DNA from: Bacteroidota bacterium
Lineage (GTDB): Bacteria > Bacteroidota > Bacteroidia > UBA7662
Length of the DNA: 64,000 nucleotides
Reading direction: 5' to 3'
Assembly: GCA_005799065.1 (NCBI GenBank)
Contig: SYHW01000068.1
Coordinates: 10,272 to 74,271 of the forward strand
Positions 24,618 through 55,694 of the stretch are shown piece after piece (position 1 is the first letter of the stretch; every line of letters starts with the position of its first letter). The position numbers and the translations under genes are program-made. Below the pieces are notes generated by a model that was given only the letters and a program-made list of their open reading frames with translations, was not told where the DNA came from and did no database searches.

Positions 24618-24642
24618 CGGAATTTAAAATAGCAAATGTAGT

Positions 24643-25866: not shown

Positions 25867-25973
25867 GCGATAAAAGCTTGTTTTTTAAAGTCTTTGATTC
25901 TGCATCTGAAGGAAATGCATTCGATTCAGTTGGTTTATGATTGCTGCGGATGGAAAGTTAACCAATTCTGTGT

Positions 25974-27155: not shown

Positions 27156-27280
27156 CCCAAAAATAATGGTAATGGTTCACGTATATTCAACTTTTTTTCA
27201 CATTATATGATTATTATTGCAGTGATTTTACGCAGTTCCTCGAACTACACCTTTTAGTTTTTCAATTTCAATTTGACTTT

Positions 27281-29332: not shown

Positions 29333-29337
29333 TCATT

Positions 29338-38478: not shown

Positions 38479-39687
38479 TCAATAAAAATCGTGCTGGTGG
38501 GGGTAGCGGATGATCCAGGCCTCTTTTACCATGCGCACCAACTCAGCGCGGAGTACATCCATACCCATACGCTTTCGTACGGATACGGAAACAACAGGGC
38601 CATTGTTGGTGTGTTGATGAGGATCAGCCACTTCTCGACCATCTGGCCACTCAGCCTCCCTTTCCTGAACACTAGGGATTAAATCTATTTTATTCATGAC
38701 CGTGAGCATCGGTTTGTCGCGCACCCCTAAATCATGAAGCGTTTGTTGAACCACATGCATCTGAGCAACGTGTCCAGGATGAGAAGCATCCACCACATGC
38801 ACCAAAATATCCGATTCTCTGACTTCATCGAGCGTGCTTTTAAAAGACTCTATGAGGTGATGCGGGAGTTTACGGATGAAACCGACGGTGTCGGATAGTA
38901 GAAATGGTGTGTAGTCGATGACCACTTTTCGAACGGTTGCATCGAGGGTGGCGAACAACAAGTTTTCCGCCAAAACCTCCGATTTGCTAAGTTCTTTCAT
39001 TAACGATGATTTTCCTACATTCGTATAGCCAACGAGGGCCACTCGGATGATTTTTCCCCGGTTTTTCCGTTGGGTGACGTGCTGCCGTTCGATTTCTACC
39101 AGTTTCTCTTTGAGTAAGGTGATTCGATATCGGATGTTGCGCCGGTCTGTTTCAATCTCTTTCTCACCAGGGCCCTTCATGCCAATGCCACCTTTTTGCT
39201 TGCTGAGGTGGGTCCACATCCGGGTAAGTCGCGGGAGCAAATACTCATGCTGGGCCAGCTCTACTTGTGTGCGGCTTTGCGCTGAACGGGCGCGTGAGGC
39301 GAAAATATCCAGGATTAAGGTGCTTCGGTCGAGTATTTTGACGCGCGCCTCGAGGAGGTCGGGGTTGAACAAACGTTCCAGATTTCTGAGTTGGGCAGGA
39401 CTCAACTCATCATCGACCAAAACCAAGTCAATTTGCTCTATCCGCACATACTCTTCTACCTCTTTAATTTTCCCCGAACCGAGGTAGGTGCGGGAATCGG
39501 GAGCAGGCAATCGTTGAACAAAGCGTTTTTGAACCGTTGCGCCAGCCGTTTTGGCCAAAAACTCCAACTCATCGAGGTGCTCGCTGCATAATGTCTCGCC
39601 CAGCGATGGAATTATGATGCCGAGCATCACAGCGCGTTCGGGCCCTGTCGATGATGTAGGCAAAGGGGAGGCCTGCTTTGCCATCAA
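38479..39687 (-). CDS. hflX: GTPase HflX
   Basis: HflX N-domain and G-domain motifs GYTNVGKSS, DTVGF and NKID. Confidence 0.93.
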   Translation of the reverse strand: MMAKQASPLPTSSTGPERAVMLGIIIPSLGETLCSEHLDELEFLAKTAGATVQKRFVQRLPAPDSRTYLGSGKIKEVEEYVRIEQIDLVLVDDELSPAQLRNLERLFNPDLLEARVKILDRSTLILDIFASRARSAQSRTQVELAQHEYLLPRLTRMWTHLSKQKGGIGMKGPGEKEIETDRRNIRYRITLLKEKLVEIERQHVTQRKNRGKIIRVALVGYTNVGKSSLMKELSKSEVLAENLLFATLDATVRKVVIDYTPFLLSDTVGFIRKLPHHLIESFKSTLDEVRESDILVHVVDASHPGHVAQMHVVQQTLHDLGVRDKPMLTVMNKIDLIPSVQEREAEWPDGREVADPHQHTNNGPVVSVSVRKRMGMDVLRAELVRMVKEAWIIRYPHQHDFY

Positions 39688-41561
39688 TCGACTTTCAATG
39701 CGTCGCCCCGCAGTTCTCTGAACCGCCTGCGGGCATCTACGGTGAATAAGCTATCCGGGTATTCCTCGAGCATTTTTTGATACAATCCGAGGGCATCCTC
39801 TGATTTGCCCTCCCGTTCACAAAGCCTTGCTAATGCGATTAGGGCATCATCCGCTAGTATGTCTTTGGGGTGATCTTTGAGCAGCGACTCATAACTGAAA
39901 CGTGCTCCGGCTAAATCACCGGTTTTTTCTTGAATGGAGGCCTTTCGGAACCAGATTTCATCGCGTAGACTATGATCAGGCAGTTCAAGCAGCATAGCAT
40001 CGAAGGCGCGAAGAGCCGAGTCAAATTGTTGACGCTTCATCATTAACTCAGCTCGGGCAAAATTCATGAGTGGTAATTGACTGGTGTCGAGGTTAAAATT
40101 ATCGGCGATGAGCAGCGATAACTCCATGGCGTCATTCGAAATTTTATGGGTGGTGCCTGCCTTCAAAATGTCGAGCTGTGCCTGGGCCCATTCAAATTCA
40201 AAACGGAAATAGGAAAGACGGGCGTTGCGCAAACGGGCCTCCTGGCCAATAACGTCTTCAATATAATCTTTATCGACCTGACCATAAAGCAATTGTGCCT
40301 CCCAGAGTTCGTCGGTCAACAAGAATAAATCGGCCAGTTCCAACTTAGCTTCAGCGCGTTTGCGGGCATCACCCGGCCCGGCAATGGCTTCTTCCAGTAG
40401 TTGAATTCCTTCATCAAAGCTACCCAATTCATAGGCTAGAATGTGGGCCAAGCCCTTTTTGAGGGGTAGAGCAAGGTTGGGATGACGTACATCTGTGATC
40501 ACAAGCCTGTATTGATCGGCTAGTTGCGACCACGATTCGCGACCCGCACGATCTCGTTCCAACATCAACTGTTTGTTGTGTAAGCGGTTCATGCGGGCAT
40601 CGAACCATACAGGTAAAGCCGGACCTGCATCTATGAGGTATTGATAGATCTCATCGGCTGCGGCATAATCCCGATTTTCGGTGGCCGTTGTGGCCAAAGC
40701 AAGAAGGCGCGTACCGCCTTCTTTTTTGCGGGTATCCAGGGCACGAGCCTGCACAAATGCCAAACTGAAGTCCTTCTGTTGAACGAAATACCAAACGGCC
40801 AGTTCAGGAAGAAGAAGGTCATCGGGGTATTTCTGCAATGCGGCCATCAATTTTTCTCGAAAAACTTCGAAATCCTCCACAGCGATGTTGCTCTGTAATT
40901 GCTTTTGAATGTGCCCCATCTGCTGGGGGTTCTTAACTAGATACTCCAGGTAATTCTCAACCATCCGAGCTTTTTGACCAGTTGCCCGATACAACTCAGC
41001 CAATTCAAGAACAAAAGCGTCGGGCTTATTCATTTGTTGGGCTCCTTGTTCATAAACCCGAATGGCATAGTCATTTTCAGCCCTGATCTGGAAACTGAAA
41101 GCATAGGAAAGCAAGCGATTGCGGTCGGTGGGGAGTTTTTTGAAGATTTCCTCGAATGCGGCCAAAGCCTTGGCTTCCTTGTTTTGTTGGCGGAGCGACA
41201 CCGCCTGGTCGATCACAAATTGGATGTCCTCAGGAAATTTTTTACTTAGAAAAGCAGCCATGCTTTCGGCACGTTTAAAATCACTTAAGCGCGTGTAGGC
41301 TGCATATAGATAGTTGTAGGCGTTTCGCTCACCGGGATTGGTTTTTAACAACTGTTCTAAAACTTCCGCTGCTTTATCGAATTCCTCCTGTTGAAAATAA
41401 TTGATCCCCAATTGCATTTGGGATTTGGGGTCCTGTTGGGCATGGGCATACGAGCCGAAGAAACAGGATAGTACCAGATAAAATCCCACAAAAAGGGTTG
41501 AAACAGCGTCAAATTGAGCCCGCGAAAAAGGCGCTTTTGAAAAGACGGGAGTAGCGGTCAT
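39684..41561 (-). CDS. large TPR-repeat protein (secreted/periplasmic)
   Basis: 625 aa. N-terminal hydrophobic segment and TPR-like helical repeats throughout. 4-nt overlap with hflX. Confidence 0.75.
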   Translation of the reverse strand: MTATPVFSKAPFSRAQFDAVSTLFVGFYLVLSCFFGSYAHAQQDPKSQMQLGINYFQQEEFDKAAEVLEQLLKTNPGERNAYNYLYAAYTRLSDFKRAESMAAFLSKKFPEDIQFVIDQAVSLRQQNKEAKALAAFEEIFKKLPTDRNRLLSYAFSFQIRAENDYAIRVYEQGAQQMNKPDAFVLELAELYRATGQKARMVENYLEYLVKNPQQMGHIQKQLQSNIAVEDFEVFREKLMAALQKYPDDLLLPELAVWYFVQQKDFSLAFVQARALDTRKKEGGTRLLALATTATENRDYAAADEIYQYLIDAGPALPVWFDARMNRLHNKQLMLERDRAGRESWSQLADQYRLVITDVRHPNLALPLKKGLAHILAYELGSFDEGIQLLEEAIAGPGDARKRAEAKLELADLFLLTDELWEAQLLYGQVDKDYIEDVIGQEARLRNARLSYFRFEFEWAQAQLDILKAGTTHKISNDAMELSLLIADNFNLDTSQLPLMNFARAELMMKRQQFDSALRAFDAMLLELPDHSLRDEIWFRKASIQEKTGDLAGARFSYESLLKDHPKDILADDALIALARLCEREGKSEDALGLYQKMLEEYPDSLFTVDARRRFRELRGDALKVD

Positions 41562-43103: not shown

Positions 43104-44045
43104 CTATTCGCACATGCGTGCCTTGGTTTGTAGAAACTCATCCCATATGCGGCGCACCAACGCCCCGGCGGGCAGAATTTCGTCGATACCCGCCGAAACC
43201 TGTCCGATTTCCAATTCACCGTAGATCAAATCCCCTTCGAACATGCCTTTTTTGGCACGACCCCTTCCCAGCAGTGCCGATAAGGCCGCTGCGTCGGCTC
43301 CTTGAGCCTCAGCAGCCACAACTTGATCGAAAAAGGGGTTTTTTAACAAGCGAACAGGGGTGAGCGCCTTCAGCGACAATCGGGTGTCGCCCTCACTCGC
43401 CTTGAGCACTGCTTCTTTGAAGGATTGATGGGCCGAAGATTCGTGTGTGGCCACAAAACGACTCCCCAGTTGTGCGGCGTCGGCCCCCAAGGCCATTACC
43501 GCGTAGACTGCGGAACCCGATGCAATTCCGCCTGCAGCAATCAGGGGCAAAGCGGTGGCCTTTCTTACCTGAGGAATTAAACATAAGGTGGTAGTTTCTT
43601 CGCGACCATTGTGACCGCCTGCCTCGAAACCTTCGGCTACCACGGCGTCTACACCCGCTCGTTCGGCCTTTTGGGCAAAGGCAGCGCTCGAAACCACATG
43701 CACCACTTTAATGCCGTGCTCCTTGAGGGTGGATGTATATTTGGCCGGATTGCCTGCCGAAGTAAAAACAATCGGCACCTTATTTTCGATAATCAGATGG
43801 AGATGCTCGTCGATCTGGGGGTATAAGAGTGGAAGATTCACAGCAAAAGGAGCGCTGGTGGCCTCTCGACAACGCTTCAACTGCAACGCCAAAACATCAG
43901 GATACATTGAGCCCGCTCCTATGATGCCCAAACCACCCGCCTCGCTTACAGCTGAGGCCAATTCCCATCCACTGCACCAGATCATGCCGGCCTGTATGAT
44001 GGGGTATGAGATATTGAATAGCTGACAAATTCTATTTTCTGTCAT
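43104..44045 (-). CDS. NAD(P)H-dependent flavin oxidoreductase (nitronate monooxygenase / FabK-like family)
   Basis: YPIIQAGMIWCSGWELASAVSEAGGLGIIG N-terminus and a TIM-barrel FMN pattern (AAGGIASG). Confidence 0.85.
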   Translation of the reverse strand: MTENRICQLFNISYPIIQAGMIWCSGWELASAVSEAGGLGIIGAGSMYPDVLALQLKRCREATSAPFAVNLPLLYPQIDEHLHLIIENKVPIVFTSAGNPAKYTSTLKEHGIKVVHVVSSAAFAQKAERAGVDAVVAEGFEAGGHNGREETTTLCLIPQVRKATALPLIAAGGIASGSAVYAVMALGADAAQLGSRFVATHESSAHQSFKEAVLKASEGDTRLSLKALTPVRLLKNPFFDQVVAAEAQGADAAALSALLGRGRAKKGMFEGDLIYGELEIGQVSAGIDEILPAGALVRRIWDEFLQTKARMCE

Positions 44046-44235
44046 TGGGGAATAGGAATAGTTGAAATCTTATGGGTTCTTGTTGAAATCGATTGGGCGT
44101 TAATCACTGCAAACTACGAAAATCAAGCACATCTTGCTGATGTATTCCTAAAGATTAATTTAGTGTGAATTGGCACTTGCATAAGTTCGTTCTCCTTGCT
44201 ATGTTGCACCTCGATTTTACTTTAAGCCGATTTGT

Positions 44236-47200
44236 ATGAAAAAAACGCTCTACGCTGGATTTTTCCTGTTTTTTGCTTGCATCGCCACGGCCTTCGGACA
44301 GGCCGGTACGGGTACCCTGCAAGGAAAAGTGGTGGATGACCTCAAGCCCAAGGAAGGGATTCCCTTCGCCAACGTGATTTTGGAGCAAAATGGTGCCCAA
44401 AAATCGGGTACCACCACAGACATTAACGGAGCCTATAAATTCGGTGCGGTACCTCCCGGAAAATATGATGTAAAGGTGTCTTATGTGGGCTACAACACCC
44501 GTGAAATCAAGGGTGTGTTGGTAACAGCCGACAAATCCAATTTTTTGGACATTCGCATGACGTCAGGGGTCGATTTGAGTGTCATTGACGTGGTCGATTA
44601 CGAGGTTCCACTGATCTCCAAAGACGAAACCTCAACTGGAGGCACAGTAACCCGTGAGGAGATCGCCGCTCTGCCAACCCGCGACGTAAACTCCATTGCG
44701 GCCACCACAGCGGGTGTTTTCCAGCAAGACGAAGGCAGTGCATTGAACATTAGGGGTTCTCGTTCGTCATCCACAGAATATTTTATTGATGGTATTCGTG
44801 TTCGGGGAACGACCAACTTGCCCAACGCTGCGATTGAACAAACTACAGTTATTACCGGGGGTATTCCTGCCCAATACGGAGACGCCACGGGCGGTATCAT
44901 CAACATCACAACCCGCGGCCCTTCGGGTCAATTCTATGGTGGAGCCGAGGTATTGAGTTCTTTTAAGGTGTTGGAGCCATATGGGTATAATTTGTATGCG
45001 CTCAACTTTTCCGGTCCACTGGCTAAGTCCAAAGACCGTTCCGTACTGGGGTACTTTCTTTCGGCAGAATACGAAACGCAAGTCGATCCCCGTCCATCTG
45101 CCGTCGGTGTTTGGTCGCTCAGGCCTGAAGTCCTCGACTCAATCAGCAATAATCCCTACAGGGCCTCCATTTTTGGCAGCGGCGTAAACCGCAACTCAGA
45201 ATTTGTGACCCGAGATGACATGGTATTGGGCCAGGTTCGCCCCAATGCCAACCGCGACCGTTTATCGGTTGCTGGAAAAATTGATTTCCAGCCTACACCC
45301 TTAATCGGATTTACGGTAGGTGGTAACTATGATTATGTGGATTTTCGCAACTACAGCCGTGCGAATCTGTTGTTTAGTCCAAACAACATGGGCTTCAACA
45401 CAGAGACCACAACCCGTATGTATGCACGATACAAGCAGAATTTTGCATCCTCCCAAGATGCAACGATTAAGAACGCTTACTACACGTTGCAGTTCGACTA
45501 TACCAATTCAGGTACTACCCAAGATGGTGGTGATGCGTTGGGAAGGAATCCCTTTAACTACGGCCATATTGGTAAGTTCGACTACAGCCAATTGCCCATT
45601 TTCCTGAGCGGTTCATTCGTAGATTCGGCGTCTGGCCTGCCGGTGCGCTACGATGATGTTCAGATCCTTCAGGGATTTGGTGATCGTAATCTTCGTTTCA
45701 CGCCCAGCACCATCGACCCGGGTTTATCGGTTTGGGGCACAAGCTTTTTCAATGTGCTCAGTGCAACTGAGTTCAATAGCCTGAGCGATGTGCGCTTGTT
45801 CGGCGGCTTGGTGAATGGTCTTCGTCCAGGATCAGCCTATGGTATTTGGCAAGATCCAGGCCGGCAATTTGGAGGCTATAGCTACTCGAATAACGACCTT
45901 TTCCGCTTCACCGGATTTTTCTCGGCTGATATTGGCAAGCATGCACTCAAATTCGGTTTTGAGTACGATCAACGCATCGACCGGGGGTATTCTGTGAGCG
46001 CCTATGCCGGTGGTATTGGTTTGTGGGGGATTGCCAGGGCATTAACAAACCGACACATTCTCGAATTAGATTTGGACAACCCGCTGATCGACCGTGATGA
46101 ATTTGGTTTTATGCTGGGGGATACAGTTCGCTACAACCGACTCTACAATGCGGCCAATCAATCGACCTTCGACCGCAATCTTCGTCGCTCGCTGGGCTAT
46201 GCAGACAATGATTTGAGATTCATCAATGTTGATAATTTGGATCCTGACCAATTGAAGCTGAGCTTCTTCTCTGCTGAGGAGTTGTTGAACCAAGGTAATT
46301 CTTTCGTGTCGTATAATGGATATGACTACCTCGGAAACCGTCTGGCTAAAAATCCTGGGTTCTTGGATTTCTTCAACGACCGAATCAATCGCCCGATTCC
46401 TGCTTTTCAACCCATTTATATGGCGGGCTTTATTGAGGATAAGTTTGCCTTCGATGACCTCGTGTTTCGTGTAGGTGTGCGGGTTGACCGTTTTGATGCC
46501 AATCAGCCTGTTTTGGCCGACCGTTTCCTGCTTTATCCGGCGAGAACTTTGGCCGAGGTTGATGGAGCCCTTAATTCATCGGGTGCTCACCCCAGCATTG
46601 TGCCCACCAATGCTGTTGTGTATGTTAATGATGTCAACACACCGAACCCTACGATTCTGGGTTATCGTTCTGGGGTACAGTGGTACACCGCCCAAGGAAC
46701 TGAAGTGCGGAATGCATCGGGAATTGCCGCCGCCTCTGCATCGGGTAGGGTAACCCCTTATCTTCGTGATACTAGACAAAATGAAGTCCGTGCCGATGCC
46801 TTTGTCGATTACACTCCGCAAATTAATTTCATGCCCCGCGTGGCGTTTTCATTCCCTATTTCCGATGAGGCACAGTTTTTTGCCCATTACGACGTCTTGA
46901 CCCAGCGCCCCAGTGATTTCTTCCGTTTCGATCCTCGACAGTATTTCTTTTTACAACAAATCGGAGGAACGATCAACAACCCTGACCTCAAGCCAGAGCG
47001 CACGATCGACTATCAGTTGGGTTTCAAGCAGAGATTGAATAAGTCCTCAGCCCTCACCATCAGTGCTTTCTACCGCGAGTTGCGCAATATGATCCAAATC
47101 ATCAATGTTCCTTTTGCTTTTCCATTGGACTACCGCACTTATGGTAACATTGACTTCGGAACAGTTAAAGGCTTAACATTAAGTTATGACCTCCGCAGAA

Positions 47201-47895
47201 CGGGCAATGTGCGCATCAATGCAAGCTATACCCTACAGTTTGCGGATGGAACAGGTTCAGCACCGGAGCAGGCAACGAATATTATTCAAGCGGGTATCGA
47301 CAACCTCCGTACGCCCATTCCGTTAGACTTTGATGCACGCCACCGATTAGTGGGAACGCTTGATTTCCGCTTTGGTGAAGGAAAAGATTACAGTGGTCCC
47401 CGCATAGCTGGATTCGGTTTGCTCGAGGGTATTGGCTTTAATTTGGTAGCCAATGCCATTTCTGGCACTCCTTTTTCGAGGCAGACCATTCCCACACCAG
47501 ATGGAGCAGTGGTGGGTGGACTCCAGGGAAGAACGACTTTGAAAGGTGGAATTAACGGATCAAGGCTCCCATGGCAGTTCCGAATGAATCTGCGGGTCGA
47601 TAAGGACATTAATTTCAAGATGGGTTCCGACCGCAACGACAAGCCAAGGGAGGCAACGGTGAATGTGTTTCTTCAGGTCTTGAATCTATTCAACAACATG
47701 AATGTAATCAATGTGTATCAGTTCACCGGGGATCCCTTGGATGATGGATATCTCACAAGTGATCTGGGTCGCCAGCAGGCGCAGGGTGTACTCAACCAAC
47801 AGGCTTTCTTGGACTTGTATAGAGCATCAATGGATTCTCCAGGTAATTTCAGTATTCCACGACGCACCCGTTTAGGCGTTCGCTTTAACTTCTAA
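44236..47895 (+). CDS. oversized TonB-dependent-receptor-type outer-membrane barrel with carboxypeptidase-regulatory-like N-domain
   Basis: Signal peptide. GTLQGKVVD...PPGKYDVKVSYVGY (CarboxypepD_reg-like). Plug motifs NIRGSRS, YFIDGIRV and GGIPAQYGDATGGIINITTRG. About 1000 aa of barrel-like sequence ending ...GVRFNF. Confidence 0.85.
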   Translation: MKKTLYAGFFLFFACIATAFGQAGTGTLQGKVVDDLKPKEGIPFANVILEQNGAQKSGTTTDINGAYKFGAVPPGKYDVKVSYVGYNTREIKGVLVTADKSNFLDIRMTSGVDLSVIDVVDYEVPLISKDETSTGGTVTREEIAALPTRDVNSIAATTAGVFQQDEGSALNIRGSRSSSTEYFIDGIRVRGTTNLPNAAIEQTTVITGGIPAQYGDATGGIINITTRGPSGQFYGGAEVLSSFKVLEPYGYNLYALNFSGPLAKSKDRSVLGYFLSAEYETQVDPRPSAVGVWSLRPEVLDSISNNPYRASIFGSGVNRNSEFVTRDDMVLGQVRPNANRDRLSVAGKIDFQPTPLIGFTVGGNYDYVDFRNYSRANLLFSPNNMGFNTETTTRMYARYKQNFASSQDATIKNAYYTLQFDYTNSGTTQDGGDALGRNPFNYGHIGKFDYSQLPIFLSGSFVDSASGLPVRYDDVQILQGFGDRNLRFTPSTIDPGLSVWGTSFFNVLSATEFNSLSDVRLFGGLVNGLRPGSAYGIWQDPGRQFGGYSYSNNDLFRFTGFFSADIGKHALKFGFEYDQRIDRGYSVSAYAGGIGLWGIARALTNRHILELDLDNPLIDRDEFGFMLGDTVRYNRLYNAANQSTFDRNLRRSLGYADNDLRFINVDNLDPDQLKLSFFSAEELLNQGNSFVSYNGYDYLGNRLAKNPGFLDFFNDRINRPIPAFQPIYMAGFIEDKFAFDDLVFRVGVRVDRFDANQPVLADRFLLYPARTLAEVDGALNSSGAHPSIVPTNAVVYVNDVNTPNPTILGYRSGVQWYTAQGTEVRNASGIAAASASGRVTPYLRDTRQNEVRADAFVDYTPQINFMPRVAFSFPISDEAQFFAHYDVLTQRPSDFFRFDPRQYFFLQQIGGTINNPDLKPERTIDYQLGFKQRLNKSSALTISAFYRELRNMIQIINVPFAFPLDYRTYGNIDFGTVKGLTLSYDLRRTGNVRINASYTLQFADGTGSAPEQATNIIQAGIDNLRTPIPLDFDARHRLVGTLDFRFGEGKDYSGPRIAGFGLLEGIGFNLVANAISGTPFSRQTIPTPDGAVVGGLQGRTTLKGGINGSRLPWQFRMNLRVDKDINFKMGSDRNDKPREATVNVFLQVLNLFNNMNVINVYQFTGDPLDDGYLTSDLGRQQAQGVLNQQAFLDLYRASMDSPGNFSIPRRTRLGVRFNF

Positions 47896-47898
47896 GAA

Positions 47899-50800
47899 AT
47901 GATGATCAACATGAATATTTTCAAGCATATGAAGAAAATTGGCTTAGCACTACTGTTAATTAGTGTACTTTTTACAACGGTTCAGGCACGTGAGGATCTT
48001 TCTGTGGGTAGGAGAACCGACCAGAATAACCGAAATTTTATTGCGCGCTTGGCCTCCACCTGTACGCCACCTTCTGCCAAAATCAATCTCGACATTAATA
48101 ATGTGCGTACCATGATTTTGCGTGGGAACGATATGTGGTGGGATTTGGCCAGTAATCCACGCTATGAAATTCCGAAATTGGATGACCCCAGCTTGCCGAA
48201 AAAGCACTCCTTATTTGCTGGTTCGGTTTGGGTGGGTGGTATAGATGCTGTAGGTACGCTGAAAGTGGCCGCACAAACTTATCGTCAAACGACTGTGCTC
48301 GGCGTGGGTTGGTGGGCAGGTCCATTAACCCTCGACTCAGCTACTATCTCGAAAGCTGAGTGTGACCGTTGGGATACCCATTGGAAAGTAGAACGCAAAC
48401 AGATCCAGGATCACATTGCGGGTATTGAATCGGGCGACCCGAATTATGTGGTTCCTGATGCCATTCGCAACTGGCCTGCTAGTGGCGATGTGACATTGCT
48501 TCAAGACCCCAAATTGGCACCATTCGTTGATGTTGATGCGGATGATATTTACAACCCGAGTGCGGGCGATTATCCATTCATTTATGGCGACCAATCCATT
48601 TGGTTTGTTACGAATGATAAAGGAAATGCTCCAGGATCGGGTGGTACACCGATTGGTATGGAAATTCAGACCCAGGCATTTGGATATCGATCCAATGATG
48701 AATTGAACAATATGACGTTCTATTCGAATAAAATCATCAACAGGTCGTCCATCACCCTTAATAATTGCTTTATGGCACAGTGGGTCGATCCCGATCTTGG
48801 CCAAGCTACGGATGACTTTGTGGGATGTGATGTACCTCGTGGTTTAGGAATTTGTTACAATGGAGATGATGATGATGAGGGTATTCAGGGATATGGTGTC
48901 AATCCGCCTTCCATTGGTATTGACTTTTTTGAAGGTCCATTTTCTGACTTAAATGATGATATTGATAATGATCGTGATGGAACGGTTGATGAAATCGCTG
49001 CAACGGGTTGTGATCCAGAGCCGCGAACAGAGCGTATCATAATGGCGAAGTTTCTGTACTTCAACAATGACGGTACGCCTATCGGTAACCCTTCTACTGC
49101 TGAGCATGCGTATAATTATATGATTGGAAAATGGAAGGACAACAGTCAGATGGTTTATGGTGGTACGGGTTACCCGGGCTCTGTAGGTGCAACCACCACC
49201 CCAGCGGGATTGATGTTCCCTGGTGCTTCAGATCGCGCATATGGGTGGTCTATTGGTGGCTCGGTTCAAAATCCGATTGCCCCACCCTTTGATTGGGATG
49301 AAAATAATCCAGGGCCCGGTGCTCAGGCGAATGTTCCGGCAGACCGTCGGTTTGTTCAGTCTGCGGGTCCGTTCACTTTAGTGCCCGGGGCTGTGAATTA
49401 CATCACCATTGGAGTGGTTTGGGCTCGTGCCTCCTCAGGGGGTGCGCGCGGCTCCTTCAACCAGTTGTTGCGGGCAGATTCTAAGGCTCAGGCATTGTTT
49501 GATGCCTGTTTCAAAACCATCGATGGTCCTGATGCTCCAGATGTTTCTATTACTGAGTTGGATCAGGAACTCATTCTAAGTTTCTCTTATCGGCCTACCA
49601 GCAATAACTACAATCTCGGGTACCGTGAAATAGACCCGGTTATTCAGGCTTTGAATCGTGATCTTCCGCCCGGAACGCCTTTATATGATTCGGTGTACAA
49701 GTTCGAGGGTTTTAAGGTGTACCAATTGTCGGCCTCTAATGTTTCGACCGGTGAATTAGATGATCCGAGTCGCGCTCGTCTCTTGTATCAAGGTGATCTG
49801 AACAATGGTGTATCGAGAATCATCAATTGGAATTATGATTTGGATATGGAGCAATCGGTCCCATTCATTGCTGTGGATGGCGCCAATGAGGGTGTTCGGA
49901 TGACCTTGCGTGTTACCCGCGATCTGTTTGCCGAGGGTAGTGATCGTTTGGTGAACTTCAAACGCTATTATTATTTGGTAGTGGCCTATGCTTACAACCA
50001 ATATCAAGAATTTGATCCAGTTGCGCTGACTGGTCAACAGCTTCCGTATTTGGCTGGACGTAACAACGTCTCTACCTACACGGGGATTCCTCATAAGTGG
50101 GAGCCAACCTTCAATGGCTTGATTTTGAATTCTGCCTATGGCGATGGTCCGGAAATCACCCAATTGGAAGGGCGTGGTAATGGTGGAAGGAACCTTGAAC
50201 TCACGGATGAAACGCTTGTTGAGATTCTAAATAATGGATACGCGGTAGCGCCACAGTTTGAGAGGAGTTTTGGTCCCATCGACATAAAGGTCATTGATCC
50301 TACCTTGGTGCCTCGTGCAAAAATGCAGCTCGCCATGTACAAAGGAACACCAAGTGGTACAGCAGCAGTCGATAACAGCGCCCGTTGGTATATTTTGTAC
50401 AACAACGACACGATTTTCTCTGACACGACCATTGCATTAGCTAATGAGCAGATTCTCGGTTATTACGAGTCAACGGCTATTTTCCGTCGTTTGGGATTGA
50501 GTGCCACCATTCGGAATGTTGCCCCTCCGGGAGATGCAGCAGTCCTTGAAACGGGCAATGGTTTGATTACATCCGGTTATCGTTTTTCTGAGCCATCGCG
50601 TGAGTGGATGTTTGGTTTGCCTGATGGTTTTGGCTTGTTCGATTGGATTAAAGCGGGCCCGGCTAATGTTGGCGGTGGCGATGGGTTTATCGTTGATGGT
50701 GATCCAAAACGGGCTTACGAGGGAGTAGTGCGTATGACTATTCCCGGAACGGATGTGCAAGGAGGGACTTGGTCGCCCATGCGATTCGCTATGCCATCAG

Positions 50801-51870
50801 CCATCACGCCTGGGGTTTTCGTGGATGATGTTCCACAAGCCACACCTTTCCGTTTGGCCGCTCGTCTGGATAGCTTGAAGAGTGTTGATATTGTCATTAC
50901 TCCTGATAAATCGAAATGGACGCGTTGTGTTGTCTTAGAAATGTGTGAGGCCAGTGCCGAAGCACAGGGGGGACGTCGCAGAAATCACATTCGTGATGCA
51001 GCCTCAGTGGATAAGGATGGCAATGTTGATGCCAATGAAAGCCGTCGTGGTTTGGGCTGGTTCCCTGGTTACGCCATCAGTCTGGAAACGGGCGTGCGTT
51101 TGAACATAGCCTTTGGTGAGGACAGCCGCGCTTCCCTTTCTAATGGCCGCGACATGATTTGGAACCCAAATGACACTTTATTTGGTGATGTTGGTCGTGG
51201 TCAACCCCAAATTACCATGGGGGGCAAGCATTTTATCTATGTCTTTGGCTCGCGATATGATACAGCGAATTATGTATATAATCAATTGGCTGGCCCTGGG
51301 GTGAATGTCAATAATCTTGGTAATAGCCTATTGCGCAACGTATACCGAGAGGTGTTGTGGACCTCCATTCCACTGTTGTCTCCCGGTAAGCGACTACTTG
51401 ATAATGAGGTAAAGTTTAGCATACGTGTAAATAATTCCTATGGAAAGTTTCTGGCTCCTAGTGTTCAGGCCATTAACGCAGGGAATCCTCGTTATGAGTT
51501 CGACTTAACAGATTTGGCTCCCATTAAGAATGATTTGCCTACTGCTCAAAAGGCACTCGATTTGATTAGGGTTGTGCCCAATCCGTATTATGGTGCATCA
51601 CGCTATGAGACGAGCCAGATCGACAATCGGGTGCGCATTACCAACTTACCCATTCAATGCGTGATTAAAATCTACACCTTAAACGGCACCCTGATCCGTA
51701 CCCTGAGGAAGGACGATGCCAGTACATTTGTTGACTGGGATTTATTGAATCAGGAGCGTATTCCTATTGCTAGTGGGATGTATTTGCTTCATGTGAATGC
51801 CCCGGGCATTGGTGAGAAAGTGGTGAAGTGGTTTGGGGTTACCCGGCCTATCGACTTAGATACATTCTAA
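47899..51870 (+). CDS. 1323-aa uncharacterised secreted protein with acidic Ca-binding-like loop and T9SS-like C-terminal domain
   Basis: Starts 3 nt after the barrel gene (likely signal peptide MKKIGLALLLISVLFTTVQA from ATG 47929). DDIDNDRDGTVDE loop. Last ~90 aa are VVPNPYYG...IKIYTLNGTLIRTL...ASGMYLLHV. No catalytic motif recognised. Confidence 0.8.
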   Translation: MMINMNIFKHMKKIGLALLLISVLFTTVQAREDLSVGRRTDQNNRNFIARLASTCTPPSAKINLDINNVRTMILRGNDMWWDLASNPRYEIPKLDDPSLPKKHSLFAGSVWVGGIDAVGTLKVAAQTYRQTTVLGVGWWAGPLTLDSATISKAECDRWDTHWKVERKQIQDHIAGIESGDPNYVVPDAIRNWPASGDVTLLQDPKLAPFVDVDADDIYNPSAGDYPFIYGDQSIWFVTNDKGNAPGSGGTPIGMEIQTQAFGYRSNDELNNMTFYSNKIINRSSITLNNCFMAQWVDPDLGQATDDFVGCDVPRGLGICYNGDDDDEGIQGYGVNPPSIGIDFFEGPFSDLNDDIDNDRDGTVDEIAATGCDPEPRTERIIMAKFLYFNNDGTPIGNPSTAEHAYNYMIGKWKDNSQMVYGGTGYPGSVGATTTPAGLMFPGASDRAYGWSIGGSVQNPIAPPFDWDENNPGPGAQANVPADRRFVQSAGPFTLVPGAVNYITIGVVWARASSGGARGSFNQLLRADSKAQALFDACFKTIDGPDAPDVSITELDQELILSFSYRPTSNNYNLGYREIDPVIQALNRDLPPGTPLYDSVYKFEGFKVYQLSASNVSTGELDDPSRARLLYQGDLNNGVSRIINWNYDLDMEQSVPFIAVDGANEGVRMTLRVTRDLFAEGSDRLVNFKRYYYLVVAYAYNQYQEFDPVALTGQQLPYLAGRNNVSTYTGIPHKWEPTFNGLILNSAYGDGPEITQLEGRGNGGRNLELTDETLVEILNNGYAVAPQFERSFGPIDIKVIDPTLVPRAKMQLAMYKGTPSGTAAVDNSARWYILYNNDTIFSDTTIALANEQILGYYESTAIFRRLGLSATIRNVAPPGDAAVLETGNGLITSGYRFSEPSREWMFGLPDGFGLFDWIKAGPANVGGGDGFIVDGDPKRAYEGVVRMTIPGTDVQGGTWSPMRFAMPSAITPGVFVDDVPQATPFRLAARLDSLKSVDIVITPDKSKWTRCVVLEMCEASAEAQGGRRRNHIRDAASVDKDGNVDANESRRGLGWFPGYAISLETGVRLNIAFGEDSRASLSNGRDMIWNPNDTLFGDVGRGQPQITMGGKHFIYVFGSRYDTANYVYNQLAGPGVNVNNLGNSLLRNVYREVLWTSIPLLSPGKRLLDNEVKFSIRVNNSYGKFLAPSVQAINAGNPRYEFDLTDLAPIKNDLPTAQKALDLIRVVPNPYYGASRYETSQIDNRVRITNLPIQCVIKIYTLNGTLIRTLRKDDASTFVDWDLLNQERIPIASGMYLLHVNAPGIGEKVVKWFGVTRPIDLDTF

Positions 51871-51884
51871 AAGACCGTCTATTT

Positions 51885-52937
51885 ATGAAACTGATGAATA
51901 TTTCAAGATTTTTTTTGTGTTTCGGTATCGGGGCTCTGATCAGCACGCCTGTTTGGGCCGGTAACCCTGATCGTAGAGGACAAGCGGGCGCCACTGAACT
52001 GTTGATTATGCCCTGGGCAAGAAGTTCCGGTTGGGTCGGTGTAAATTCTTCGTGTATTCGTGGCATTGAAGCAGAGCGCATGAATATTGCGGGATTGGCT
52101 TTTACCCAAAAAACTGAATTGAATTTTGCTCGAACTACCTGGTTGAGTGGTAGTGATGTGTATGTTAATGGTTTTGGTTTGGCTCAGCGTATCAACGAGT
52201 CGAGTGTTCTTGGTGTATCTGTGATGTCGCTCGATGTGGGTGCTGTGGATATCACAACCGTCGAAAGTCCGGATGGTGGTTTAGGAACGTTTAAACCTTC
52301 ATTCTCGAATATTGGATTGTCTTATGCGAAGTCTTTTTCGGATCGGATCCACGGAGGAGTAACGCTGCGGATTATATCTCAAAGTATATCCGACGTGTCC
52401 GCTCAAGGCGTGGCTTTCGATGCGGGTATCCAATACGTTACCGGTAAAAAGGAAGAAATGAAGTTCGGTATAGCCCTCCGAAACGTGGGTACACCTATGG
52501 TTTTTGGTGGGGATGGTTTATCCGCCCGTGGTACCATGCAAGGCAGTACGGTGCCTCTTACCTTGAGCCAGCGTTCTCAGGGCTTTGAATTGCCTTCCTT
52601 AATGAATATTGGTGCGTCTTATGATATTTATCTGACCGACGACGACAATTACCGCCTTACGCTTGCGGGTAATTTCGCGTCCAATTCGTTTACCAATGAT
52701 CAATATGGCTTTGGCGCAGAATTGAGTTTCAAGAATATCATCGCTCTTCGTACGGGTTATCAGGTGGAGGATAATCTCTCCGATCAGTCATTGGTTCAAA
52801 ATGTGTACACGGGCATGAATTACGGCATTTCAATCGACGCCCCCAGTGGTAAAAGTCGCTTTGGCTTCGACTACGCTTACCGGGCCAGTAACCCTTTCAG
52901 CGGCACCCACGTTATTGGTGTGCGTTACGGATTGTAA
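51885..52937 (+). CDS. PorV/PorQ-family (FadL-like) outer-membrane barrel protein
   Basis: Signal peptide MKLMNISRFFLCFGIGALISTPVWA. N-terminal GATELLIMPWARSSGW...NIAGLAF resembles the PorV-family entry motif. Alternating beta-strand pattern. Ends ...GVRYGL. The ORF track start at 51828 overlaps the upstream gene, so ATG 51885 is preferred. Confidence 0.7.
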   Translation: MKLMNISRFFLCFGIGALISTPVWAGNPDRRGQAGATELLIMPWARSSGWVGVNSSCIRGIEAERMNIAGLAFTQKTELNFARTTWLSGSDVYVNGFGLAQRINESSVLGVSVMSLDVGAVDITTVESPDGGLGTFKPSFSNIGLSYAKSFSDRIHGGVTLRIISQSISDVSAQGVAFDAGIQYVTGKKEEMKFGIALRNVGTPMVFGGDGLSARGTMQGSTVPLTLSQRSQGFELPSLMNIGASYDIYLTDDDNYRLTLAGNFASNSFTNDQYGFGAELSFKNIIALRTGYQVEDNLSDQSLVQNVYTGMNYGISIDAPSGKSRFGFDYAYRASNPFSGTHVIGVRYGL

Positions 52938-52961: not shown

Positions 52962-52993
52962 GAACGCCCCAATACGGGGCGTTCCTTTGTTTT
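52962..52993 (+). terminator. rho-independent terminator after the three-gene module
   Basis: Perfect 9-bp GC-rich stem gaacgcccc / ggggcgttc with loop aatac, followed by ctttgtttt. Confidence 0.8.
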
Positions 52994-53007
52994 AATAGTC
53001 TGAGTTC

Positions 53008-53481
53008 ATGAGCGAAACATCATATTTTACACAAACCGGTCTCGATAAGTTAAAGGATGAGTTAACCGATTTAAAAACGCGCGGAAGGGCCGAAATGGCC
53101 AAAGCCATCCAAGAAGCGCGCGACAAAGGCGATCTTTCCGAAAATGCAGAATACGACGCGGCTAAGGATGCCCAAGGTCTTTTGGAAATGCGTATTGCTA
53201 AGTTGGAAAATGTTTTGGCAAGCGCTCGTGTTTTGGACGAGAGTACCATTGATTTGTCGCGCGTTCAAGTGCTGACGAAAGTAAAGATTCGGAACCTGGC
53301 CAACAATGCAGAAATGACATACAGCATTGTTTCTGAGAAGGAGGCGGATTTAAAGGCGGGTAAGATTTCCAGTACTTCACCCATTGGAAAAGGACTTGTG
53401 GGCAAAGCGAAGGGAGAAATAGCAGAAATTCAGGTGCCATCCGGGATCATGACATTTGAGATATTGGATATCAGTATTTAA
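53008..53481 (+). CDS. greA: transcription elongation factor GreA
   Basis: 157 aa. LSENAEYDAAKDAQ coiled-coil motif and a C-terminal FKBP-like domain. Confidence 0.95.
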   Translation: MSETSYFTQTGLDKLKDELTDLKTRGRAEMAKAIQEARDKGDLSENAEYDAAKDAQGLLEMRIAKLENVLASARVLDESTIDLSRVQVLTKVKIRNLANNAEMTYSIVSEKEADLKAGKISSTSPIGKGLVGKAKGEIAEIQVPSGIMTFEILDISI

Positions 53482-53485
53482 TAGT

Positions 53486-53896
53486 ATGCCCTCACTGTTT
53501 ACACGCATCATAAAAGGGGAGATTCCATGTCATTTTATTGCTGAGGATGATCGGTTTTTCGCTTTTCTTGACATCCAGCCGCTTACAATGGGTCATGTGC
53601 TGGTGGTTCCCAAGGTTGAGGCTGATTATGTTTTTGATTTGGATGCTGATACCTACACGGGATTGTTTGAATTTGCACGATTGGTTGCCCCTGCCATTGA
53701 AGCGGTTATTTCTTGTAAACGAATCGGACTTGCAATCGTAGGATTAGAAGTGCCCCATGTGCATATTCACCTGATTCCGATGAATCAAGGAAGTGATATG
53801 GATTTTGGCAAACGGAAACTTAATCCGTCGTCTGAAGATTTGGCCGGTACGTCAGAGGCAATAAGAGCCCAGTTCCTTAAGCGAACTGCATCTTAA
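53486..53896 (+). CDS. HIT-family hydrolase
   Basis: FTRIIKGEIPC N-terminus and histidine triad HVHIHLIP. ATG 53486 preferred over the upstream ORF start at 53456. Confidence 0.9.
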   Translation: MPSLFTRIIKGEIPCHFIAEDDRFFAFLDIQPLTMGHVLVVPKVEADYVFDLDADTYTGLFEFARLVAPAIEAVISCKRIGLAIVGLEVPHVHIHLIPMNQGSDMDFGKRKLNPSSEDLAGTSEAIRAQFLKRTAS

Positions 53897-54447
53897 CCGC
53901 CTCTTACCCGATTCGGATTGTTTTTGATAAAGGAGGACCAGTTTGTTGGGCCTGAGCGTGATGCAGCACCTTTACGCAATCCGAAAGCATGACAAAGTGA
54001 TACGGCAACGGCATCGGTGGCGTCGGTAGGTAAATGATCGGTGATCGAATTCTTGAGTAAAATGGGCAACATCGCGGCGACTTGTTCCTTTCCAGCATTG
54101 CCGTTGCCCGTGATGGCTTGTTTTACCCTGCGCGGGGCATATTCAAATACCGGTATATCCAATTGCAGTGCAGCCGCTATCACTACCCCCTGAGCTCTTC
54201 CGAGCTTCAGGGTACTTTGAATATTCTTTCCATAAAATGGTGCTTCGATGGCCATCGCTTCAGGACGATGAAGGCGCATGAATGCCATGGCCGAATGAAG
54301 GATGTGTTTCAGTCGGTCTGCTGAATCTTCCTCTACGCTTTTCCAAATGCCCGCTTCCAAGAGCTCGTGATCAGAGCCGGAGCATCGAATGAGCCCATAG
54401 CCCGTAACACGCGACCCAGGGTCGATGCCCAAAATTAGTGTTTCCAC
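53893..54447 (-). CDS. ruvC: crossover junction endodeoxyribonuclease RuvC
   Basis: LILGIDPGSRVTGYGLI N-terminus. The ORF is open to ATG 54513, but GTG 54447 gives the canonical N-terminus, so the start is uncertain. 4-nt convergent overlap with the HIT gene. Confidence 0.88.
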   Translation of the reverse strand: METLILGIDPGSRVTGYGLIRCSGSDHELLEAGIWKSVEEDSADRLKHILHSAMAFMRLHRPEAMAIEAPFYGKNIQSTLKLGRAQGVVIAAALQLDIPVFEYAPRRVKQAITGNGNAGKEQVAAMLPILLKNSITDHLPTDATDAVAVSLCHAFGLRKGAASRSGPTNWSSFIKNNPNRVRGG

Positions 54448-54638
54448 CAGCAAGAAAATTGACCAGAAAAATGAAAGTACATGCACAAATATAGAGCGAA
54501 TGCAAGGCCACATCCCCTAAATTGCAAGCGCATCGGGTCGTTGATTTTGCTGATACGGTTAGGAATAGACTCTAAGCTCCTAACTGCGCTGATCCTAAAC
54601 CCTCGGAACCCACCCATCGTGTCAAAGAAATGTAAAAT

Positions 54639-55694
54639 ATGTTCTTGAAAATGCGATTATGGAACATCATAGGTCGATTGTCTGTTGCATCGCGCTTGAG
54701 CCTTTGGATATTATTCGCCCTTGGATTATTGTCGGTTTTGGCTCCGTGGGTTTCACCGGATTCAACCCCCGATGCCAATAGACAAGATGTGCGCATCCGA
54801 ACCCTAGAACCGGCCCGATCGGTTGATTTTCTGATAGAACCGCGTTCGTCTGTGGAACCGCGTTCGTCTGTGGAACCGCGTCATAGCCAAAGTCGAATTC
54901 CGCTAAGCTGGTATGAGCCCAACCAAACCGGTTTTCGCTATGTAGTCTGGGACCAGCCTTATGACACTTTAAGTGTATCTCCATCAGCGGGCCACAGCAT
55001 TTCTATTGAATCTCAGACATTTTGGTTCGGTACAGATTTAATGGGTCGCGATTTATTGAGCCGTCTGCTCCTGGGGATGCGGAGCACATTAAAAATCGGC
55101 GTGTTTGCCGTATTGGTGAGTCTATTGGTCGGGATTTTCATAGGAATTCTGGCAGGTTATTTTGGGGGAAAGGTCGACCAAATCCTGACTTGGCTCATGC
55201 AAGTGGTGTGGTCGGTGCCCTCGATTATGCTGGTCATCGCTTTTTCTCTCGCATTGGGCAGAGGCGCTTGGCAGATCTATCTCGCAGTAGGTCTTACATT
55301 ATGGGTAGATGTAGCACGCCTGGTTCGGGGTGAGGCTCGTCGGCTGCGTGAACAGGAATTTGTGCAGGCGGCCCAGGTGTTGGGGTATAGTTCAATTCGG
55401 ATCATGATGCATCATCTTCTGCCCAATATGCTCGGCCCCATACTCATTATGGCCGCAGCGCAATTTGCCAGTGCCATCTTGGTGGAGTCTGGCCTCAGCT
55501 TCTTGGGCCTGGGCATTCAACCGCCTGCGCCGAGTCTGGGGATGATGATTCGCGAGCATTATCCCTATATTCTGACGCGATCCGCGTGGTTAGCCATCGC
55601 GCCAGGTGTTGTCATTTCATTGATGGTGTTGACCTGCAACTTGCTCAGCACAGGAATGAGCGACCTGTTAGGAAGAGTCGAGAAAAAATCTTAA
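54639..55694 (+). CDS. ABC transporter permease, DppC/OppC-like
   Basis: N-terminal TM helix, a ~110-aa periplasmic insert, then GTDLMGRDLLSRLL and the EAA-loop region (FVQAAQVLGYSSIRIMMHHLLPN). Confidence 0.85.
   Translation: MFLKMRLWNIIGRLSVASRLSLWILFALGLLSVLAPWVSPDSTPDANRQDVRIRTLEPARSVDFLIEPRSSVEPRSSVEPRHSQSRIPLSWYEPNQTGFRYVVWDQPYDTLSVSPSAGHSISIESQTFWFGTDLMGRDLLSRLLLGMRSTLKIGVFAVLVSLLVGIFIGILAGYFGGKVDQILTWLMQVVWSVPSIMLVIAFSLALGRGAWQIYLAVGLTLWVDVARLVRGEARRLREQEFVQAAQVLGYSSIRIMMHHLLPNMLGPILIMAAAQFASAILVESGLSFLGLGIQPPAPSLGMMIREHYPYILTRSAWLAIAPGVVISLMVLTCNLLSTGMSDLLGRVEKKS
54837..54883 (+). repeat. 18-bp in-frame tandem repeat (EPRSSV x2 plus a partial unit) in the permease periplasmic insert
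   Basis: gaaccgcgttcgtctgtg at 54837-54854 and 54855-54872, with a partial third unit. Confidence 0.9.

Follow-up and report, generated by a model that had tools for sequence, protein, structure and literature searches.

A conserved three-gene locus of Bacteroidota encodes a TonB-dependent transporter, a large protein with a T9SS-like C-terminal domain and a PorV/PorQ-family barrel

Results and Discussion

Organization of the three-gene locus

A stretch of 64,000 nucleotides from a Bacteroidota bacterium (contig SYHW01000068.1 of assembly GCA_005799065.1, positions 10,272 to 74,271 of the forward strand), hereafter called the window, carries three adjacent genes for predicted outer-membrane or surface proteins. 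Gene 1 encodes a predicted TonB-dependent transporter (TBDT), gene 2 a large secreted protein that ends in a C-terminal domain (CTD) resembling those that a type IX secretion system (T9SS) recognizes, and gene 3 an outer-membrane barrel of the PorV/PorQ family. A first-pass annotation of this DNA had described them as a tightly coupled module, and all three open reading frames (ORFs) are present on the plus strand at the coordinates given there (Table 1). The complete ORF of gene 2 (1323 amino acids, plus strand) spans positions 47899-51870. The longest ORF of gene 3 (51828-52937, 369 amino acids) has GTG as its first codon, but the most likely initiation codon is the ATG at position 51885, because homologues with 92-94% identity are 350 amino acids long and cover the resulting product fully. 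With this start, the gaps separating the genes are 3 nt (genes 1 and 2) and 14 nt (genes 2 and 3).

A strong terminator had also been reported to follow gene 3 at 52962-52993. A hairpin with a 9-bp stem (52962-52984) that includes 7 GC pairs is indeed located there, followed by a T-rich tail (CTTTGTTTTA). This is the strongest terminator-like site between positions 43900 and 53600, a region in which no other strong site is found. Because the upstream NMO-type gene (43104-44045) lies on the minus strand, and because the sole strong terminator is 3' of gene 3, genes 1 through 3 are predicted from gene structure to form one transcription unit. A scan of the whole window with Rfam yielded no match to a riboswitch or to any other RNA family.

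Table 1. Window coordinates of the three genes, their notable segments and the flanking features.
Feature	Coordinates	Strand	Remarks
Upstream intergenic region, presumed promoter region	44046-44235	+	190 nt, from the divergent NMO-type gene to the start of gene 1
Gene 1, predicted TonB-dependent transporter, 1219 aa	44236-47895	+	Pfam, AlphaFold2, Foldseek
Candidate TonB-box segment (LSVIDVVDYEVPLISKDE)	44542-44600	+	Between the N-terminal domain of gene 1 and the plug
Gene 2, signal peptide and body, residues 1-1225	47899-51573	+	Large beta-rich secreted protein
Gene 2, C-terminal domain, residues 1226-1323	51574-51870	+	Type-A-like T9SS CTD (...KWFGVTRPIDLDTF)
Gene 3, PorV/PorQ-family outer-membrane barrel, 350 aa	51885-52937	+	NF033709 match; distinct subfamily
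Intrinsic-terminator-like hairpin	52962-52994	+	9-bp stem, then CTTTGTTTTA
greA and HIT-family gene, outside the module	53008-53896	+	Conserved downstream neighbours, synteny marker

Co-conservation and distribution of the three genes

The three window proteins were compared by tblastn with 82 related loci (designated by L numbers). The trio is intact in 72 of these, with the receptor gene directly upstream of gene 2, the barrel gene directly downstream, and all three on the same strand. Median gaps in the related loci are 27 nt between the receptor gene and gene 2, and 22 nt between gene 2 and the barrel gene. The other 10 loci comprise six solo gene 2 paralogues, three loci cut by contig ends, and L004, which is counted outside the 72 because automated start-finding took an upstream ATG. 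Look-ups anchored on receptor homologues or on barrel homologues recover the same trio. The first-pass annotation had held that its module would fall if the genes were not conserved together; the neighbourhood checks made from each gene agree that they are. The arrangement, found again in 72 of the 82 loci, is far beyond chance.

The genomic setting is likewise conserved. Of the 82 loci, 69 have greA 3' of the trio and 65 have a HIT gene there. Pfam matches to GreA_GreB and HIT were seen in L001, L002 and L083-L087, and ruvC follows in several loci. With this recurrent set of downstream genes, the module occupies a stable block of the core genome. At equal evolutionary distances, the three proteins show identities of about 45%, 41% and 50%, and GreA of about 60%.

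Relatives of gene 2 occur in at least 594 species when one genome per species is scanned. The 80 loci that were kept all derive from uncultured genomes, nearly all labelled Bacteroidota, and their labels include Cryomorphaceae, Crocinitomicaceae, Schleiferiaceae, Salibacteraceae, Lentimicrobiaceae and Bacteroidales. Among the matches listed, all are metagenome-assembled genomes (MAGs) or unnamed contigs, the best being MAGs placed in Crocinitomicaceae, Cryomorphaceae, Schleiferiaceae and Lentimicrobiaceae, and the trio is apparently absent from model organisms.

Gene 1 is predicted to encode a plugged TonB-dependent transporter

The product of gene 1 had been annotated as a TonB-type receptor on the basis of a signal peptide, plug motifs and a terminal Phe. 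These elements are present in the translation, which has a signal peptide ending ...ATAFG/Q and terminates in ...RFNF. Three Pfam domains score above their cut-offs, namely CarboxypepD_reg (residues 27-109, 60.5 bits), Plug (PF07715, residues 137-221, 47.1 bits versus a cut-off of 23.9) and TonB_dep_Rec_b-barrel (residues 567-1053, 50.4 bits versus a cut-off of 27). Matches in NCBIfam are weak and partial and extend to many TonB receptor models, and the 14 NCBIfam matches do not include the SusC/RagA model TIGR04056. Homologues are of constant length (1209-1263 amino acids).

An AlphaFold2 model built from an alignment of 98 homologues has a predicted local distance difference test score (pLDDT) of 87.4 and a predicted template modelling score (pTM) of 0.81. 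Its barrel comprises ~22 long strands by our count, and very long loops are inserted near mature residues 568-705, 734-840 and 1055-1092. When this model was compared by Foldseek with the PDB, the best matches were classical TBDTs, with E-values around 1e-25 (PqqU, with an E-value of 1.5e-25, PhuR, FepA and BtuB). Among these, BtuB gives the highest target-normalised template modelling (TM) score, 0.80. The matches also include the XusA-XusB complex of Bacteroides. A phmmer search of the receptor against PDB sequences gave a sole match, which is scaffoldin-like and falls on the N-terminal domain.

A candidate TonB box, with the consensus L...EV..Y.VPLID, is found after the N-terminal domain and ahead of the plug, where SusC-type receptors have theirs. 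Within it, P104, L105 and I106 (mature numbering) are each at least 90% conserved across the 98 homologues. The Pfam domains, the confident barrel model and the fold matches to classical TBDTs together argue that gene 1 encodes a genuine plugged TBDT, with an extracellular face that is predicted to be oversized.

The body of gene 2 represents a large protein family

The gene 2 product carries a Sec signal peptide (ending ...TTVQA/R) and lacks a lipobox Cys. No Pfam domain was found in the whole protein, and a Pfam search at E-values up to 10 with separate segments returned nothing in the three body segments. A family profile made from 27 members gave no match to PDB sequences at E-values up to 1. 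The AlphaFold2 model of residues 31-1225 (105 sequences) is mostly beta, with a pLDDT of 89.4 and a pTM of 0.73.

Foldseek comparison of this model with the PDB returned only partial matches, to glycoside hydrolase (GH) enzymes of families GH94, GH116 and GH15, with TM scores of at most 0.22 and root-mean-square deviations above 10 Å. Nothing meaningful was found in the BFVD library of viral structures, and no SusD-, BtuG- or XusB-like domain was found by Pfam or Foldseek. Because long helices are too few in the model to form the helical catalytic barrel of GH94, GH116 and GH15 enzymes, the resemblance most likely extends only to the beta-sandwich domains of these enzymes. This echo of carbohydrate-active enzymes is weak and provides only a hint that a glycan might be involved.

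Searching with a single trimmed gene 2 sequence in a library of 1.84 billion proteins recovered 7213 clusters at 50% identity with E-values up to 0.001, and 2328 with E-values up to 1e-30. More than 4600 matches were obtained in a database clustered at 90%. Gene 2 thus belongs to a large family (7213 clusters) that is without a Pfam model or a structural relative.

The C-terminal domain of gene 2 resembles that of PorZ

The last part of gene 2 had been likened in the first-pass annotation to the T9SS sorting domains of two other proteins in the window. Those two proteins do carry such domains, scoring 31.9 and 45 bits with TIGR04183, and the organism therefore has T9SS cargo. For gene 2 itself the assignment stands in part. 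Residues 1216-1309 match positions 666-750 of the 757-position PorZ model in NCBIfam (E-value 1.4e-5), and 19 of 27 family members match TIGR04183 at E-values up to 0.01 (best 6.2e-7), but the window protein remains below threshold with the sorting-domain models (for Pfam PF18962, 13.9 bits versus a cut-off of 27). The PorZ model is matched by 21 of the 27 family members (best E-value 7e-9), and several members are named 'T9SS type A sorting domain-containing protein' by NCBI. Gene 2 was rejected as PorZ proper, since it scores 23.7 bits with the PorZ model (NF052228) versus a cut-off of 260 and covers just the end of that model.

No part of the gene 2 family is better conserved than the CTD, which has a mean pairwise identity of 65% versus 50% for the body. 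Past the end of the ordinary type A CTDs encoded in the same loci, gene 2 continues with a nearly invariant extension of ~10 residues that has an aromatic last residue (...KWFGV[MT]RPIDLDTF; KWFGVTRPIDLDTF). This tail corresponds to window positions 51829-51867 and residues about 1311-1323, and its motif is kept in trio-linked copies as well as in solo copies. The extension could be a peptide that docks in a barrel.

These features suggest how the protein might reach and remain at the cell surface. Because gene 2 has a signal peptide and no lipobox, and because its CTD is matched in most family members, it would need a route to the surface other than that of lipoproteins. Likewise, because the CTD has its best match in the PorZ model and is more conserved than the body, it looks like a domain that is retained after export.

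Gene 3 is predicted to be a distinct member of the PorV/PorQ family

The proposal that gene 3 encodes a barrel of the FadL/PorV type is borne out over the full length of the protein. Residues 54-367 of the 369-residue ORF align with positions 3-324 of the 326-position PorV/PorQ family model NF033709, with a score of 137.6 bits versus a cut-off of 90. The equivalog cut-offs for individual members are not reached, and gene 3 was therefore rejected as PorQ proper (69.5 bits versus 220), as PorV proper (59.5 bits versus 250) and as PorV2 (43.3 bits versus 325). It was also rejected as a PorP/SprF protein (TIGR03519, 23.2 bits versus 90.55). No sequence match, and no PorV, was found by phmmer in the PDB at E-values up to 0.1. 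The 3777 homologues are ~350 amino acids long, and several are named 'PorV/PorQ family protein' by NCBI. Judged by these scores, gene 3 is a separate subfamily of the CTD-binding PorV/PorQ barrels. The FadL-like barrel BamG of the Bacteroidota machinery for beta-barrel assembly (the BAM complex) was also considered, and that complex was judged irrelevant to the trio.

Genes for T9SS cargo are often linked to a gene for their cognate barrel (PMC12618676). The family of the gene 3 barrel, the PorZ-like CTD of gene 2 and the conservation of this CTD above the body make it plausible that the products of genes 2 and 3 are a cargo/anchor pair. Such a pair would resemble PorZ-PorQ and PorU-PorV, in which a CTD-bearing protein is likewise paired with a PorV/PorQ-family barrel; the gene 2 CTD is nearest the end of the PorZ model. 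However, the gene 2 body has no relation to the two beta-propellers of PorZ or to the C25 peptidase of PorU, the barrel falls below the PorV and PorQ equivalog cut-offs, and a TonB receptor gene is part of the same unit. The trio also shares with SprB/SprF-type pairs the linkage of a T9SS cargo gene, in its case a putative one, to its own FadL/PorV-like barrel gene (PMC12618676). Those pairs have type B CTDs and PorP/SprF barrels, whereas the gene 2 CTD is type-A-like and the gene 3 score with the PorP/SprF model is below the cut-off, as noted above.

The first-pass annotation had also considered a more ordinary explanation, in which gene 2 is a canonical PorU and the locus is a porU-porV pair beside an unrelated TonB receptor. 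The sizes of the two proteins are near those of PorU (about 1200-1300 amino acids) and PorV, and 4 of 27 relatives of gene 2 weakly match the PorU model (best E-value 8.7e-5). However, these weak matches are confined to a minority of relatives, and the window protein itself lacks a Peptidase_C25 domain and does not match the PorU equivalog model NF033707. Structures of PorU and PorZ are absent from the 50 PDB matches listed by Foldseek for gene 2, and gene 3 does not approach the PorV cut-off. Moreover, the co-conservation seen in 72 of the 82 loci extends to the receptor. We consider this explanation refuted.

A possible uptake unit with a T9SS-delivered surface partner

The pairing of a TBDT with a surface partner is an established pattern in Bacteroidota, in which the lipoproteins SusD, BtuG and XusB serve as partners. 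Like the SusC/SusD, BtuB/BtuG and XusA/XusB systems, the locus described here has a gene for a TonB-dependent barrel adjoining a gene for a large, in this case putative, surface-exposed partner, and the gene 1 product has an N-terminal carboxypeptidase-regulatory-like extension as does SusC. Unlike in the SusC/RagA family, the receptor does not match TIGR04056 and the downstream gene has no SusD domain. The locus also differs from SusC/SusD-type pairs in that gene 2 encodes no lipoprotein (there is no lipobox) and has a T9SS-type CTD instead, that a third gene encodes a PorV/PorQ-family barrel, and that it is present as a single core-genome copy rather than in variable, multiple copies.

We tentatively propose, at somewhat less than an even chance, that the operon encodes a TonB-powered uptake unit whose surface partner is delivered by the T9SS and tethered through its CTD to a PorV-like barrel of its own. 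Gene 1 would provide a plugged, TonB-energised importer of ~22 strands with unusually large external loops. The gene 2 protein would be exported by Sec, receive no lipid anchor, and then cross the outer membrane by way of the T9SS. Its CTD would be kept rather than cleaved and would dock in the dedicated barrel encoded by gene 3, as PorZ stays on PorQ and PorU on PorV; these are the two cargoes in which retention of the CTD is known, and each is held through it by its barrel (PMC10202324). The 130-kDa beta-rich body of gene 2 would thereby be held at the surface beside the transporter, where, by analogy with SusC/SusD, it may serve as a capture or lid partner. We infer the retention of the CTD, its docking in the barrel, the contact with the transporter and the direction of transport alike.

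Several observations weigh against an uptake unit of this kind. Residues 1227-1303 of the window protein score 18.3 bits with TIGR04183, which is below the cut-off of 23. Solo gene 2 paralogues that lack an adjoining receptor or barrel have an equally conserved CTD (trio-linked copies, n=68, versus solo copies, n=6; no difference by a Mann-Whitney test, p 0.55), and conservation alone is therefore no proof of pairing with the adjacent barrel. The fold of gene 2 receives no clear binding or catalytic assignment from the PDB or BFVD comparisons with Foldseek, and no riboswitch or regulator that would hint at a nutrient was found. Furthermore, the single-copy position in the core genome beside greA, HIT and ruvC is unlike that of typical nutrient loci, which are multi-copy and variable, and would also fit a role in envelope biogenesis or secretion.

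Alternatively, the operon might resemble a polysaccharide utilization locus without forming a stable ternary complex. Gene 2 would then be ordinary cargo, an enzyme or binding protein whose CTD is cleaved and which is either released or anchored to lipopolysaccharide; gene 3 would be its private shuttle, and the receptor would import the products. Linkage of cargo genes to genes for their cognate shuttles is known (PMC12618676), and the weak echo of GH94, GH116 and GH15 folds, together with many invariant acidic and aromatic residues in gene 2, is compatible with an enzyme. A second gene 2 paralogue follows the barrel gene in some loci, an arrangement like that of nutrient loci with several surface proteins. 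However, no catalytic domain was found in gene 2 by Pfam, NCBIfam or PDB profile searches, the GH fold matches do not exceed a TM score of 0.22, and the model is too poor in long helices for a helical catalytic barrel. A CTD that is conserved above the body and followed by a conserved tail of ~10 residues would also be odd for a disposable signal. We regard this alternative as unlikely.

The main rival, and a serious one, is that the operon is an accessory module of the T9SS that imports nothing. The TonB-type barrel would be PorF-like and act together with the PorV-family barrel in secretion or in attachment to the surface, and gene 2 would be a dedicated substrate or an enzyme like those of the attachment complex. 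PorF (PG0534), a TonB-receptor-like barrel that the first-pass annotation overlooked, is listed as a component of the T9SS (PMC5445135; PMC8754138). PorV of Cytophaga hutchinsonii co-immunoprecipitates SprA and CHU_1606, a TonB-dependent receptor that is 32.8% identical to PorF (PMC8564354). Like the gene 1 product, PorF and its counterparts (PG0534, Fjoh_0118 and CHU_1606) are TonB-receptor-like barrels, and they have functional or physical links to PorV-family proteins (PMC5445135; PMC8564354). The resemblance of the gene 2 CTD to the CTDs that close the PorZ and PorU models, and the single-copy, housekeeping-like position of the locus, also favour this view, under which the receptor may have its place in T9SS biology instead of in nutrient import.

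Gene 1 nevertheless differs from PorF as described, which is ~92 kDa and is reported to lack a Plug domain (PMC8564354). The receptor encoded here has 1219 amino acids, a clear plug and a conserved TonB-box-like segment. In addition, its barrel matches only the generic TonB barrel family in Pfam. Receptor-like barrels of ~760-820 amino acids that lie near solo gene 2 copies L029 and L072 matched no T9SS-specific NCBIfam family. On balance, a T9SS accessory role seems improbable, albeit deserving of serious attention.

A further possibility is suggested by Oar of Myxococcus xanthus, through which the protein PopC is exported. By analogy, the receptor would send gene 2 or another protein outward. 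Oar has a comparable architecture, with an N-terminal carboxypeptidase-regulatory-like domain, a plug, an oversized barrel and a link to a secreted protein (PMC6434023). In contrast to the trio, Oar is not known to have an associated PorV-like barrel or CTD-bearing cargo. Because gene 2 bears its own T9SS-type export signal, such export is unlikely; a plugged barrel of 22 strands would probably not pass a folded protein of 140 kDa, and no sequence link between the receptor and Oar emerged from the Pfam and NCBIfam scans. We therefore assign this mode of action a very low probability.

Implications of the proposed uptake unit

TBDTs with surface partners are central to feeding in Bacteroidota, and the T9SS is the signature secretion system of these bacteria. 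To our knowledge, TonB transport and the T9SS have so far been treated as separate. The uptake unit proposed above could represent a third way in which many uncultured Bacteroidota provide a TBDT with a surface partner, one that uses no lipoprotein lid (SusD, BtuG, XusB) and no secreted hemophore or siderophore. It would amount to an uptake machine of two barrels and three proteins that physically links T9SS and TonB biology. We consider this broader interpretation conceivable but rather doubtful.

If the proposed unit exists as described, it would be a concrete case in which to test whether retaining the CTD is a general means of anchoring, outside PorU and PorZ. It might also help in understanding the association of PorF and other TonB-receptor-like barrels with parts of the T9SS. 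Because the module lies in a stable core block of abundant uncultured lineages (freshwater, marine and gut-associated), its substrate could be ecologically important.

The statement in the first-pass annotation that no characterised example is known agrees with our full-text literature searching, in which no description of the trio was found and whose coverage excluded most subscription journals. The parts of the locus are of known kinds, and what appears to be new is their combination together with the ~1300-residue gene 2 family.

Variants of the locus and other features of the window

Four related loci contain a four-gene variant of the operon, in which an extra gene 2 paralogue that is 36-42% identical to the window protein lies between the barrel gene and greA (L008, 13487-17533; L042, 13423-17448; L043, 13429-17463; L073, 13429 to the contig end). 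The second copies in L042 and L043 end in ...KWFGALSE and lack the conserved RPxDLxxF tail. The solo gene 2 paralogues (L018, L029, L030, L060, L072 and L079; 1306-1344 amino acids), which have no adjoining receptor or PorV-like barrel, are often found beside other proteins with T9SS tails. One of them, L018, comes from the same MAG as the full trio L009.

A few trio-bearing contigs have unexpected taxonomic labels. L003 (VHAX01000003.1), a MAG contig from Lake Tanganyika labelled 'Sphingomonadales bacterium', carries the trio and greA with 94-97% protein identity to the window, and two others (L048 and L078) are labelled 'Bifidobacterium sp.' and 'Omnitrophica WOR_2'. Because every other relative belongs to the Bacteroidota and shows this synteny too, the Sphingomonadales, Bifidobacterium and Omnitrophica labels look like mis-binning or mis-assignment.

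Elsewhere in the window, positions 22944-30759 hold a cluster of genes for secreted or envelope proteins. Among these are an S8 (mycosin/subtilisin-like) peptidase, an unassigned 393-amino-acid ORF and an OmpA-family protein, as well as the two proteins with T9SS tails referred to above, an esterase- or polyhydroxyalkanoate-depolymerase-like protein (24643-25866, minus strand) and a 683-amino-acid protein (27281-29332). A 625-amino-acid tetratricopeptide repeat (TPR) protein encoded on the minus strand at 39684-41561 weakly and partially matches the model of the T9SS lipoprotein PorW/SprE (34 bits versus a cut-off of 250), and it matches TPR models of the YbgF/CpoB type more strongly. The PorW/SprE match is probably generic TPR similarity.

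Even in distantly related Bacteroidota, synteny extends downstream of the trio (window 53008-55694; L001 and L083-L087) through greA, the HIT-family gene and an opposite-strand ruvC. Genes for an LPG_synthase_TM protein, a family-2 glycosyltransferase and an OppC-like permease often come after ruvC, and an AdoHcyase gene is often present upstream. At 54639-55694 the window has an ORF of 351 amino acids with an N-terminal tandem repeat (VEPRSS VEPRSS VEPRHS), and OppC-like permease genes occupy a comparable position in related loci.

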